Counted from the stretch's first letter, positions 20,371-46,762 are shown. The stretch: 64,000 nucleotides of DNA from Macrotis lagotis (GCF_037893015.1 NC_133658.1:742210877-742274876), one strand, 5' to 3'. Numbers and translations are program-made. The notes: generated by a model from the sequence alone, not told the origin.

Positions 20371-20717
20371 CTGTAAAATTAAGGGAAAAATAATGACAAT
20401 TAGAATTTCATCTCATAATAAAAAAAGTGTTGAATCGTATATATTTTAATTCATTCATTTCATATTTTAATTCAATCAAGATTTTTTTTAAAAAATTGTA
20501 TTTCTATGGTATTAAAATGCATGAATTCAATAAATTTCACTAATGAAAATATGATACCACACTGTAATTTTTTAATAACATAAAACTTAAAACTCTTTCA
20601 TAACTCATTATTAATAAAAAGGTAGGTCAGCAGTAAAGTTTGCTTAATGAACCTGAATTATAAAGAATTTTAGGTATATCAATATTTATACTGAAAACTA
20701 TATGTCAATTCAAGAAC

Positions 20718-20750: not shown

Positions 20751-20970
20751 TTAGAATTTCTGTCTCTTTCAAAAACTTATTTAGGAACAAAATATCAGCC
20801 TAGAGCTTCAGAAATGATGCCTTATTTCATGGCAGTTGCAATGATCCTAGTTTTTCCTTAAGAGCAACAACAATGTTCACTAGCACAGTATGTTGAGCAG
20901 CTGGGCCAGGCAGTTACTAGCAGAGATGGCACAGAGGAAAGGCAGATACCTCATTCTGAAGACTAAAAAC

Positions 20971-21051
20971 CTGAGCCCAAAACACCAAATTATCTTTAAT
21001 GCTTTTCAACCAACTCTCTCTGTCAGTTCCATCAGTCTGGTGTTTTTGTGT
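20971..21051 (-). CDS. PARP4: PARP4 exon (27 codons) between the proline-rich exon and the GFW exon
   Basis: acceptor ctttatctttgcctttcag|ACACAA, donor CTCAG|gttttt, phase 0-0; TQKHQTDGTDRESWLKSIKDNLVFWAQ vs human ..CTQHWQDAVPWTELLSLQT.. (weaker similarity). Confidence 0.55.
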
Positions 21052-21138
21052 CTGAAAGGCAAAGATAAAGGCAATAAAAGAACTGCATGGTTATACACAT
21101 TTTATTCAAGTCTATGTTTCCAAAACATGTTGCCTTAC

Positions 21139-22635
21139 CTTAGCAATTGATGGAGTCATATCCTGTGCTAAAGAACACTCCTGGGTGAGAATTGAAAAAG
21201 CTTCATTCACTACTTCTGATTGAGTATCTCTAGATGGAGAAAATGGAGGCTGATAGGCCTGTGGCAGTTGTTCATTATTGTTCCTTCCAAACATACGTCT
21301 GTGACTTGATGCAGGCCCTTGCATTTTTTTCTCACATATTGATGGGCGGATTCCACAAGCAACATCAGAAAGGGGGGCAAATTTCCTACCTATCCTAGAT
21401 CTTGGAAATGTAAGTAAGTTTAACTGAGACCTAGAGCCAAACAGGCCAGAATTAGGAAGAGGAGAAGGAGGAGGAAGAGAAGAAGAAGGAGAAAGAGAAA
21501 GAGAAGAGACAGTAATAGGACAAGGGGGAAAAGAAGAGACAGGAAGAGGAGGGGGAGGAAGAAGAGAGCTAGAAATGCCAGAAAAAGGACAAGGAGGAAG
21601 AGAGTCAGGAAGAAGAGATGAGGAATGTTCAGCGAGAGGAGAACAAGGAGGAGAAGGAGGAATAGAGGGAGAAGAGTATGCAAGAGGGGCATGAGAAGGA
21701 GGAGGAAGAGAGAGAGAAGAGCCAGCAGGAGGAGGAGGAGGAAGAGAAGAACCAGCAAGAGGAAAAGGAGGAAGAGAGGGAGGAGAGCCAGCAAGAGGAG
21801 GAGGAGGAGGAGGAAGAAGAGAAGAGCCTGCAAGAGGAGGAGGAGGAGAAGGAAGAGAAGAGCCTGCAAGAGGAAGAGGAGGAGGAGGAGGAGGAAGAGG
21901 AGAGGGAGAAGAGGAGCCAGTACCACAACAAGGAGTTAGGGAAGCTTTATGAAGATGAGAAGAAAGAGAACTTTTACCAAAAAGATAAGAAATTGGAGGT
22001 GGAGGTGGAGGTGGAGGTGGAGGACGAGGACCAGTAGAGCCCAAATCACCTCCAGATAGTTGGCCTAAATGAGGAGGAAAAGAGGAATTTGCAGAAAGAA
22101 AACTAGAAGTAAGTACAGTACCAGGGGATGAGGCAAAGCCTGAACTATAAGGAGAAAAGGAGGATTTGGAAATGAAAGAACTAGCCAGAGGAAGAGGAGG
22201 GGGTGGAGAAGGAACTGGACAGGAAAAAACGAAAGGGGTCATATGGTTTGAAACCTGTTTTTTATGTTTTTTAAATAAAACTGTTGTGTTTGAAACTTCC
22301 TCAGCTACATCTGGTACCATGGCATAGTCACCCAGGGTAGAAGCAAGGGTGAGTCTTTTTGGTAATGCATCAGAGGAAAACTCTAAAAAATCAACTGGTG
22401 GAGTAGAACTGAGTTTCATCATAGGAGAATCTGATGCTGGGAAGTCCTTAACTGTCTGTGAGAGCCTAATTTCTTTTTTTGACCTGCCCTGGAAAGGATG
22501 TTGTGCTGAATGTTTCCCTAAAGTAGCAATATCTGAAAAAGCAGCATTTCCTGATTCTACTGTAATAGCAGCTGTATTTCTAAAAACTTTATAATTCATT
22601 CTTCTGGCAGATTTCTGTAGAACCTGTGGCATTTC
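21139..22635 (-). CDS. PARP4: PARP4 giant exon (1,497 nt, 499 codons, phase 0-0): proline/serine/leucine-rich low-complexity region with tandem PPPPPPLAGSSL-type repeats and runs of up to 10 Pro
   Basis: acceptor ttccttttcttcag|GAAATG, donor GCTAAG|gtaagg, open frame throughout (ORF 21112..22668); N-terminal part (..KSARRMNYKVF..TVLFKKHKKQVS..) and C-terminal part (..SRDTQSEVVNEAFSILTQECS..) resemble human PARP4 region ..LSKRKHRKIPFSKRK..EPLFKKVSPWE.. and ..SSDTESDELSEVLQDSCFLQ..; central part is a ~33-36-nt GGAGGA-rich tandem repeat. Confidence 0.85.
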
Positions 22636-22689
22636 CTGAAGAAAAGGAATAAACAGAACAAAATACAAAATATCAGTCTTTTAAGCAGT

Positions 22690-27562: not shown

Positions 27563-27697
27563 TCTGGCTTGCATACTCTGGCTTGCATACTCTGGTTGTT
27601 CCAACTCCCAATCCATGTATGGCAGAAAGTCTATGTCTTCTGTGGTGATAAATTCCAAAATATTTGGAGTATGGGGATCCAGTGATTCATTGCCATC
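27563..27697 (-). CDS. PARP4: PARP4 acidic exon (45 codons)
   Basis: acceptor ttttttattcag|GATGGC, donor CCAGA|gtaagt, phase 0-0; DGNESLDPHTPNILEFITTEDIDFLPYMDWELEQPEYASQSMQAR vs human DENESPFPDIPKVSELIAKEDVDFLPYMSWQGEPQEA. Confidence 0.85.
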
Positions 27698-44549: not shown

Positions 44550-45400
44550 TTCGTGGGGGGGTAGGGGGGAGATGTCCTTTTCTCTTCAGACTTCTATAGC
44601 AAGTCTCTTTCTGGGATGGGCTATTTCTTGTTTATTTTTCCTATCCATTGGTACAGGACTTTTTTGAGATTCTGAAAGGACCAGAGGTCTAGTGACAGAC
44701 TGCCCTATCCAAGTGTGCTGGCCCTGAGCTGGGCACCAACTCTGTCCTGAGGAACAACAAGCCTCAATCCAGTGGCAAATGTAAACATCCTGCAGGGAGG
44801 CTTTCCCTGCAACCCAACCCGAGCTGAAGGGTCCAGCTGGTCTTATCTTGAAGTAGTTGCCTCATTCTACCTAGACATGCATTCAGCAATAGCAGCTACC
44901 ATTTCTAGTGGGAAGCCAGCACAGACACCAGGTAACTTCACAACTAATCCCAGCAGAAGACTGAAGGGAGGTGATTCCACCTCCACTGAGCTGCTGGTGC
45001 CTCTGGGAAGGGACCAATCCCTCGTTCACCTCCTGGCCCACCCGCCACAAACCCTGAGAATGCCCTCCAGCAAGAAGACAGGCTCCAGAGGTCCAGATCA
45101 TGTTTTCAAATCATGTTACTCTTTTTCTCTTCTCCCCAAATTCTGGATAAAGTTGTGGAACAAGGTGTCCCCAATATGGGCTTTGTAATGATTGTCTTTG
45201 TGACGTCATTTGACTAAAGAACTGAGTCCAGTGGCTAGCTGTTTAAGGGAGAATCCACCAGGGGAGGCACTCTGAAGGCAGAGAAGGAGGCTCTCTGCCC
45301 AGAGGGGGTTCCTCCTTGAATCCTAAAGTATTAGGGTACAACCCTGTGGAGTTCCAACCTGCCAGAACCTGTGTGAATTGAGCAAGTGAGACTTTAGAGG
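44550..45400 (+). other. unclassified GC-richer element, possibly solo LTR or other TE remnant (hosts spurious ORF 44772..45188)
   Basis: abrupt composition change; contains perfect CRE palindrome TGACGTCA at about 45203..45210 and ..gcattaaaaaa just before a (GA)n tract; no splice-consistent coding. Confidence 0.3.
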
Positions 45401-45409
45401 CATTAAAAA

Positions 45410-45414
45410 AGTAT

Positions 45415-45469
<55 letters not shown>

Positions 45470-45810
45470 TGTTTATGTGTATGTGTGTGTATGTGTATAT
45501 AACAGAGAGATAGAGAGACAAAGATACAGAGAGTATGTGAGTGTGTGTATGTGAGAGTGTGTGACAGAGTGAGTGTGTGTCTGTGTGACAGAGAGATAGA
45601 GCATGTGTGTATGTATGACAGAGTATGTGTGTGTGACAGAGAGAATGTGTGTATGTGCATGTGACAGAATGTGTGTATTTGTGACAGAGAGAAATATAGT
45701 GTGTGTATGTGACAGAGAGAGCGATACAGAAAGGGAGTGTTGTGAGTGTATCTATGTGAGAGAGAGGTGGGGTGTGTGTGTGAGACAGAGAGAAATAAAT
45801 TAGGGGGTGG
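45410..45810. repeat. compound (GA)n then imperfect (GT)n/GACAGAGAGA satellite-like repeat
   Basis: (GA)~25 followed by repeated gtgtgt...gacagagaga units; ends with ..gacagagagagcgatacagaaagggag.. which recurs at 50778..50808; source of fake ORFs 45243..45813. Confidence 0.85.
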
Positions 45811-46762
45811 CAAAAGGATTCACCCTAGGATCCTTTCAATAAACAATTTTGTCAACACATTTATACCACAAAATCACTAATTTAGAATTATTTTGTAAAA
45901 CAAGATGTTTTAATGTTAAGTTTAAATGGCTCATTATGTTTCTGTTAAAGTAGTAGGACCCCCACTTCCCCCTCTGATCCTCCTCACTGCTCAGATTACT
46001 TGGCAAACACTAAGGCACAGGAGAAACTACAGGAACTCTGCCTCTTTCAAAGGAATGGGTATACAGATTGATGGAGCATAGAATTCCACTCTCTACTGGT
46101 CCATGCTGCTTGCCTCCTCTATAAAGTTTGTACCTGATCCTCTTTTTCTTATGACTCTTTTTTCACCATCCCCACCTGGTGTAGGCGATCTGGTTACAAA
46201 TCTTTTAATAGCATATGTTCCTCAAATAAAACTACAACTTCACGGTGTCCAGAGGTTGTTAACCTTTTTTTGGTCACACACCTGTATGGTATAGATTTTT
46301 GAAGAAATCTATGGAGCACTTCTTTGAATAATGTCTTTATATAATGGAAGGAAAAACTAAATTTAAATTAAAAATTAGTGAAAACAAAAATGTGATTTTT
46401 CTTTTTCCCATTTTTCATAGATCATCAAATTTATCCATGGACTCCAGATTAAAATTCCCTGTGGCATAGACCCAGAGAATCCCAGGGCTGGAAGAGATCA
46501 TGGTAGTCCTCTTGGACCTGAACCTGGACAGGAGTGTTCTTTATAATATACTCCATTCATGTTTCTAGTTAAGAGCTCCAATAGCAAGAACCCCCACTAT
46601 CTCTTGAGGTAGCACACTACACTTTCTGATGACTCTAATACTTGGGCAATTTTTCCCTTGTGAATTTACTTGTCAAGATAATTCATATCCTTACTTTTTA
46701 TTATTTTTACCTTTTTAATTTTAGAAAATCAAACTGTCAGAGCCTAAAATAACAAAACTTAC

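Follow-up and report, generated by a model that had tools for sequence, protein, structure and literature searches.

A proline-rich tandem coding repeat in the largest PARP4 exon of the marsupial Macrotis lagotis

A 1.5-kb open stretch crowded with proline codons lies on the minus strand of a 64,000-nt piece of the Macrotis lagotis genome (GCF_037893015.1 NC_133658.1:742210877-742274876). This whole piece is called the window in the following, and all positions are counted from its first letter. The open stretch raises the question of which gene it belongs to, whether its repeats are more than a reflection of base composition, and how such a segment could have arisen within a protein. The original prediction described it as a single PARP4 exon with a greatly expanded tandem coding repeat. 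The reading preferred here, with good confidence, is that the exon is the marsupial orthologue of human PARP4 exon 30 and encodes a disordered tether in which a CT-rich stretch was amplified in frame and then decayed. The features are collected in Table 1.

The window is AT-rich eukaryotic DNA with a GC content of 35.5%. In a protein search, the concatenated open stretches of its minus strand matched 410 PARP4 proteins, and the closest matches listed are PARP4 of Notamacropus eugenii, Sarcophilus harrisii, and Monodelphis domestica. The conserved exons are 87–89% identical to the three marsupials and 73% identical to orangutan and rat, which indicates a marsupial source without a close relationship to any of these three. 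With wallaby PARP4 as the query, tblastn located 19 colinear exon pieces running from 59.2 kb down to 7.9 kb and covering wallaby residues 633–1397. Pfam detected VIT (E = 6e-13) and VWA_3 (E = 2e-9) on the concatenated window exons; these VIT and vWA (ITIH-like) domains are encoded upstream of the large exon on the same strand, by colinear exons between 59.2 and 38.9 kb. The last four exons (20.9, 20.3, 14.9, and 8.0 kb) match residues 1570–1723 of human PARP4 with E = 1e-57 (PDB 9bw6, 9bw7, and 11jf), and the C-terminal MVP-interaction (MINT/MVPID) domain of PARP4 is present. The window begins inside the gene at approximately wallaby residue 633, and the 5′ half (BRCT and PARP catalytic region) lies outside it; the PARP4 orthologues matched here carry both of these domains. 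Hence, the gene is PARP4, and the large exon sits between the vWA and the C-terminal domains, as had been predicted.

The frame of the large exon, EMPQVLQ...MTPSIAK, is free of stops by direct reading of the minus strand and by an ORF scan, in which the surrounding ORF spans 21112..22668 (518 aa). With slashes marking exon boundaries, the minus strand reads ttccttttcttcag/GAAATGCCACAG across the exon start at 22635 and ATTGCTAAG/gtaaggca across the exon end at 21139. Both the acceptor and the donor are strong and near consensus. Since the upstream exon ends with GCC AGA and the downstream exon begins with ACA CAA, both ends of the large exon are in phase 0, which bears out the claim of one open exon of 499 codons. 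The upstream exon carries DFLPY, a conserved motif, and the downstream exon directly precedes the exon with the GFW motif. The C-terminal part of the downstream exon aligns with the start of the human MVP-interaction domain structure (from residue 1570). Herein, the large exon takes the position of human exon 30: it is the single largest exon and leads from the ITIH-like region to the MVP-interaction domain.

Two peculiarities of the neighboring sequence may be described at this point. At the 3′ end of the upstream exon (27568–27595, minus), a 14-nt tandem duplication, CCAGAGTATGCAAG twice, is followed by CCAGA/gtaagt. It creates three nested CCAGA/GT donor-like sites, of which only the last (donor 27562) gives phase 0, and adds the residues SQSMQ compared with the wallaby junction (...EQPEYAMME). 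The intron that leads from the large exon to the downstream exon (21052–21138) measures 87 nt and has an in-frame stop (GTA AGG CAA CAT GTT TTG GAA ACA TAG), so its retention would truncate the protein ahead of the MVP-interaction domain.

Table 1. Features of the PARP4 large exon and its surroundings in the window (aa, residues of the 499-residue exon translation).
Feature	Position	Strand	Details
Largest PARP4 exon, counterpart of human exon 30	22635..21139	minus	1497 nt, 499 codons, phase 0/0
3′ splice acceptor (cag) with polypyrimidine tract tgttctgtttattccttttcttcag	22636..22660	minus	direct read
5′ splice donor AAG/gtaaggca	21131..21138	minus	direct read
Upstream PARP4 exon, 45 codons, ...DIDFLPYMDWELEQPEYASQSMQAR	27697..27563	minus	phase-0 end, GCC AGA/gtaagt
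Downstream PARP4 exon, 34 codons, TQKHQTD...FSLQNE	21051..20950	minus	starts ACA CAA
Lone outlying unit PSPPPPLPLAS, aa 142–152, upstream of the array	22180..22212	minus	unit reading
Perfect (CCTCCA)x5, ten Pro, aa 205–214, then ISYLFGKSS	21994..22023	minus	TRF, 100% matches
Five well-preserved units, 30–54 nt, aa 241–305	21721..21915	minus	consensus S-S-L-(L)-P4-6-L-A-G; TRF and shuffles
About six decayed units, aa 306–397, e.g., SSLSLPPPSHAPLAY, SSPSIPPSPPCSPLAE, ISSSLLPPPPLPVS	21445..21720	minus	unit reading and TRF period 69
Sole predicted secondary structure in the exon, helix aa 469–490 (RDTQSEVVNEAFSILTQECSLA)	21166..21231	minus	pLDDT ~60
Four overlapping nongenic ORFs	21420..22037	both	from polypurine/polypyrimidine tract
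E-rich ORF	21678–22037	plus	ORF scan
R/K-rich ORF	21625–21939	plus	ORF scan
S-rich ORF	21629–21931	minus	ORF scan
L-rich ORF	21420–21926	minus	ORF scan

The human counterpart is well described. The exon 30 region of human PARP4 is the largest exon, comprises approximately 360 aa, and is disordered; this largest exon is highly variable in sequence and length among vertebrates, and positive selection has acted on it recurrently in both primates and bats (PMC4038475, Daugherty et al. 2014). The disordered segment forms the connection between the ITIH-like region and the MVP-interacting domain (PMC10450202, Suskiewicz et al. 2023). The MINT domain consists of human residues 1562–1724, and it was the only part of full-length PARP4 that could be modelled inside the vault (PMC12280208, Lodwick et al.). 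For the exon described here, AlphaFold2 with single-sequence input, which yields low confidence for many proteins, gave a mean pLDDT of 40.5, with 428 of the 499 residues below 50. This agrees with the earlier suggestion of an intrinsically disordered linker. The one predicted helix (Table 1) was considered as a conserved C-terminal motif and rejected because the cross-species alignment is too weak.

Similarity searches with the exon itself remained empty. The whole exon gave no matches against an index of 5.8 billion proteins or against the PDB, as low-complexity words swamped the candidates in these searches, and the nonrepetitive exon flanks by themselves gave none either. HMMER, run exhaustively over 1.84 billion representatives, returned 0 matches, no significant similarity was detected between the exon and human PARP4 in the PDB, and a metagenome scan for host-derived marsupial DNA yielded 97 pattern matches, 0 of them related. 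The exons flanking it are 73–97% identical to wallaby, and a contrast of this kind, with an unmatched exon among such neighbors, is known from the literature as the hallmark of the largest PARP4 exon. It has been published before that this very exon is hypervariable in length and sequence, so the phenomenon in general is known. Neither PMC4038475 nor PMC10450202 describes marsupials or proline repeats, and a literature search for PARP4 combined with proline-rich found nothing relevant.

The repeat was examined with Tandem Repeats Finder (TRF). On the exon, TRF reports a period of 36 nt with 5.6 copies at 21693–21899 (80% matches, score 237), of 75 nt with 2.2 copies (86% matches), of 111 nt with 2.3 copies at 21648–21899 (score 304), and of 69 nt with 2.3 copies at 21472–21625 (74% matches). 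Each of the periods within the core is divisible by 3. The best score, 305 within 21440–22030, compares with maxima of 191 in 200 dinucleotide-preserving shuffles and 229 in 200 codon shuffles. Since it lies above all 400 shuffles, the long-period repeat exceeds what a CT-rich composition gives. With head-to-tail units of at least 10 nt that stand out above composition, the array resembles a coding minisatellite in this respect, and the predicted tandem coding repeat of roughly 33–36 nt with an additional run of ten prolines is thereby confirmed.

The clean units are, in order, SSSPSPLPPPPPPLPLAG, SSLPSPPPPLAG, SSLLPPPPPPLAG, SPPSLPPFPLAG, and SSLPPPPPAG; decayed units follow toward the C terminus. 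The Pro10 tract precedes the array, with aa 203–223 reading PRPPPPPPPPPPISYLFGKSS, and appears on the plus strand as (TGGAGG)x5 at 21994–22023. Copies within the array are 77–86% identical and differ by 4–13% indels, and perfect tracts in the exon are limited to (CCT)4–6 and (CCTCCA)5, the longest being 30 nt. The likeliest places for length variation would be (CCTCCA)5 and the two (CCT)6 tracts at 21877–21894 and 21796–21813. An array whose copies are only this similar and carry indels is judged to be old. The proneness to VNTR behavior suggested in the original prediction appears weaker than implied, given diverged, indel-bearing copies and perfection only in short tracts.

The same divergence bears on the reliability of the assembled repeat length. 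The coding strand of the core is approximately 90% pyrimidine, and a polypurine/polypyrimidine tract of about 450 nt, the type handled poorly by short-read assemblers and some polymerases, could have been mis-expanded or collapsed. Such an assembly artefact is scarcely credible here: units that differ at many positions (77–86% identity) can be anchored individually, the reading frame is intact through all repeat units, and the longest perfect tract is merely 30 nt. The tract itself extends over ~21465–21915, and polypurine/polypyrimidine sequence of this kind can form triplex (H-DNA).

Codon usage points to the level at which the array was generated. In the exon, CCT encodes 73 of 99 prolines, compared with 9 of 28 in the remaining PARP4 exons of the window, where CCA is commoner than CCT; TCT accounts for 61 of 94 serine codons and CTT for 32 of 54 leucine codons. 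Together with the head-to-tail structure, this bias indicates amplification of one short CT-rich motif at the DNA level. At the protein level, the proline share reaches 20% in the exon and 29% in the core, and aa 241–397 contain only two charged residues.

The course of events in the preferred reading would be as follows. A CT-rich stretch (Pro = CCT, Ser = TCT, and Leu = CTT) within a tolerant, rapidly evolving segment would have undergone in-frame amplification, probably through slippage during replication or through unequal exchange. The product would be approximately 11 S-S-L-Pn-L-A-G units, which later underwent mutational decay, and the separate perfect (CCTCCA)5. Such an amplification would have been tolerated because the segment is disordered, while selection preserved the frame.

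Coding capacity can be deceptive in such sequence. Because the ~90% pyrimidine core cannot spell stop codons on either strand, four overlapping ORFs arise in it (Table 1); all four had been noted earlier and regarded as spurious, and this composition explains them. The frame of the exon does not depend on the core alone: the 235 nonrepeat codons of ordinary composition would stay open by chance with a probability of ~5e-8. Compared with the 499 codons of the exon, the second-longest open stretch in the window has 193 aa. This stop-free stretch (45246–45824, minus) is of the SLSLSL/HTHTH type and lies inside a PARP4 intron; as an exon it was rejected, being a simple-sequence (TC/CA-type) tract.

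An open frame could still be largely invisible to selection if the large exon or its repeat core were usually removed from the mRNA, by skipping or as an exitron. Isoform X2 of wallaby PARP4 in NCBI (P0001) indeed joins ...EQPEYAMME straight to TQKHQTD..., which is a clean in-frame skip, and the segment is absent from beaver X2 (P0010) and a dingo model (P0007). With 1497 nt and phase 0/0, skipping keeps the frame. In addition, two repeat units contain an acceptor-like cctcttgcag/GC at 21864 and 21828 (minus). Use of these internal sites would shift the frame, however, since they are in phase 1, and the exon has no GTRAG donor-like site. Both of its own splice sites are close to consensus, the 235 ordinary codons have stayed open against a chance of ~5e-8, the name X2 implies a longer X1, and rodent transcripts (P0023, P0038; L001) include the homologous exon. 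The devil and opossum models without the exon (P0002 and P0003) are mis-modelled, with intron translated instead. Regular removal is thus considered very improbable. Rather, the strength of the splice sites, the phase, and the upkeep of the frame argue that the exon would be included in the mature mRNA, and the in-frame skip of wallaby X2 suggests that a shorter PARP4 isoform may be common.

The devil and opossum UniProt models were rejected as evidence for skipping because they translate intron sequence at this point. In one example of translated intron, VNEILILIFFLILQ/EGFWKL, the sequence corresponds to a pyrimidine tract within the intron at ~20371–20412. The acceptor-like sites at 21864 and 21828 arise where Leu-Ala-Gly is spelled CTT GCA GGC, which gives a pyrimidine tract followed by cag/G and resembles a strong 3′ splice site; later repeat units have GCT in place of GCA and are without the AG.

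To compare lengths across species, the linker was taken as the stretch between DFLPY in the upstream exon and GFW in the second exon after the large one. It spans ~552 aa here (18 + 499 + 34 + 1). Among the other species, it comprises 462 aa in Sigmodon hispidus (P0008), 460 and 444 aa in two muroid transcripts (P0023 and P0038), 377 aa in Camelus (P0004), 371 aa in Pongo (P0016), and 252 aa in the turtle Chelydra (P0019). Their linkers contain 11–14% proline and runs of at most 6 prolines, versus 10 here. The margin over primates is roughly matched by the repeat region (~157 aa) plus the P10 segment. The description as greatly expanded therefore holds against primates and camel (~1.5x) but not against muroid rodents (444–462 versus ~552 aa, ~1.2x). 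The earlier figure for the human segment, some 300 residues with a modest proline content, is approximately right, as orangutan has 371 aa with 11% proline and PMC4038475 gives ~360 aa. The comparison draws on the 7 of 120 listed PARP4 matches that span the linker. No PARP4 longer than 1433 aa was among the matches listed in the protein search, compared with 1724 aa for human PARP4; full-length isoforms with the large exon seem to be missing from the searched protein index, which limits the comparison.

The muroid linkers contain a repeat of their own. Sigmodon hispidus (P0008) reads ...THLPPPPPLSG SHPPPPPLLG SHPTPPPLLG SHPPPPPLLG SHLPSPP..., with four units of the SHPPPPPLLG type, and P0023 reads GGTHPPPPLPLP DGTHLPSPLF GSTHPPPPLF GGTLIPPPSSLF GGTHLPPPPP. 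In the transcript contig corresponding to P0023 (L001, Logan SRR16085586), TRF finds a period of 30 nt with 6.0 copies at 1580–1771 and the consensus TCTTCCTCCCCCTCTCTTTGGTGGCACCCA; it encodes LPPPLFGGTH units in the homologous exon, with CCT or CCC as the proline codons. At the corresponding place, orangutan (LPPPQFPGG), camel (PPPVPAAG), and turtle (PPCPPPCPPEFSQG) show one degenerate unit or so. That muroids have so similar a unit at this position implies that the motif is ancestral or recurrent and not unique to this lineage. Units are more alike within a lineage than between lineages, which fits independent amplification or concerted evolution. The simplest reading would be a single ancestral proline-rich unit that underwent separate amplification, or homogenisation, in the muroids and in the present marsupial lineage, a comparison that rests on low-complexity sequence.

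The recurrence of one unit invites the alternative that the repeat is a selected, multivalent polyproline module resembling formin FH1, amplified independently in marsupials and muroid rodents. Its binding partners would be profilin, WW-group-II/III, or EVH1-type proteins, or else a factor of a pathogen. The basis of this alternative is the shared [ST]-[SH]-(L)-Pn-L-x-G pattern of the muroid L-P-P-P-L-F-G-G-T-H (30 nt x6) and Sigmodon SHPPPPPLLG (x4) units at the same relative position, the 3 PPLP and 4 [FWYL]PPPP motifs and 7 proline runs of at least four residues (one of them P10) in the exon, a weak Drf_FH1 match in rodent P0023, and the positive selection on the exon in primates and bats (PMC4038475). 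The Drf_FH1 match, however, amounts to 19.6 bits against a cut-off of 40 bits and is probably driven by composition, and the exon of the window matches no Pfam family at E ≤ 0.01. With only two charged residues in the array, canonical class I/II SH3 ligands are essentially absent from it; one of each class occurs in the whole exon and 0 in the array. Over half of the repeat units are visibly decaying, and the presence of at most one degenerate unit in orangutan, camel, and turtle indicates that such a module is dispensable for PARP4 function. The module is therefore judged unlikely. Membership of formin FH1 (Pfam PF06346 Drf_FH1) was rejected, as there is no significant profile match and PARP4 has no adjacent FH2.

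A more specific form of this idea, in which the S-S-L-Pn-L-A-G array is an FH1-like ligand amplified separately in the marsupial and in muroids from an ancestral unit under host–pathogen selection, is quite unlikely. If true, the array would recruit profilin, WW, or EVH1 partners or decoy a pathogen factor at the vault, and the ancestral unit would remain visible in primates, camel, and turtle.

In the preferred reading of a disordered tether, the exon would connect the catalytic and ITIH-like body of the vault PARP to the MVP-docking C-terminal (MINT) domain inside the vault. The net outcome of the amplification would be a linker ~90–180 residues longer than in the sampled eutherians, nearly uncharged, and rich in polyproline. 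Hence, the length and stiffness of the tether would differ between lineages; the expansion would mainly alter these properties and probably confer no new activity. With this locus, the published variability of the exon gains a marsupial case and an explicit mechanism, in which a CT-rich unit is amplified in frame. The original prediction was largely correct but went too far in places. New are the anatomy of the repeat in a marsupial and the parallel in muroids with a near-identical proline-rich unit. The understanding of PARP4 or of vaults is unchanged by this case, which is real yet fairly ordinary. Unit counts across species offer a handle on neutral slippage versus selection at an interface that is an antiviral candidate.

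Compared with exon 30 of human and other primates, the exon belongs to the same gene, is likewise the single largest exon at the same position, and is predicted to be disordered; that it cannot be aligned across orders fits the published hypervariability. It differs from great-ape exon 30 by its length (~499 versus ~340–360 aa) and from orangutan by its proline content (20%, and 29% in the core, versus 11%) and by the arrangement of its excess as a tandem repeat where orangutan has the one degenerate unit LPPPQFPGG. With formin FH1, it shares repeated proline runs, short Gly/Ser/Leu spacers, and a disordered segment, a likeness that is compositional. Coding minisatellites and VNTRs resemble it in their head-to-tail units, a period that is a multiple of 3, and the location in a tolerant segment, whereas the present array, read from one haplotype, has diverged, indel-bearing copies and looks old. 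The muroid repeat is likewise a CT-rich coding repeat of 30–36 nt at the same relative place in the exon, with the common unit architecture [S/T]-[S/H]-(L)-P4-6-L-[A/L/F]-G. Herein, the rodent units feature His and Phe/Leu and number ~4–6 (~60 aa), whereas the marsupial units feature Ser-Ser and Ala and number ~11 (~157 aa), to which the P10 is added.
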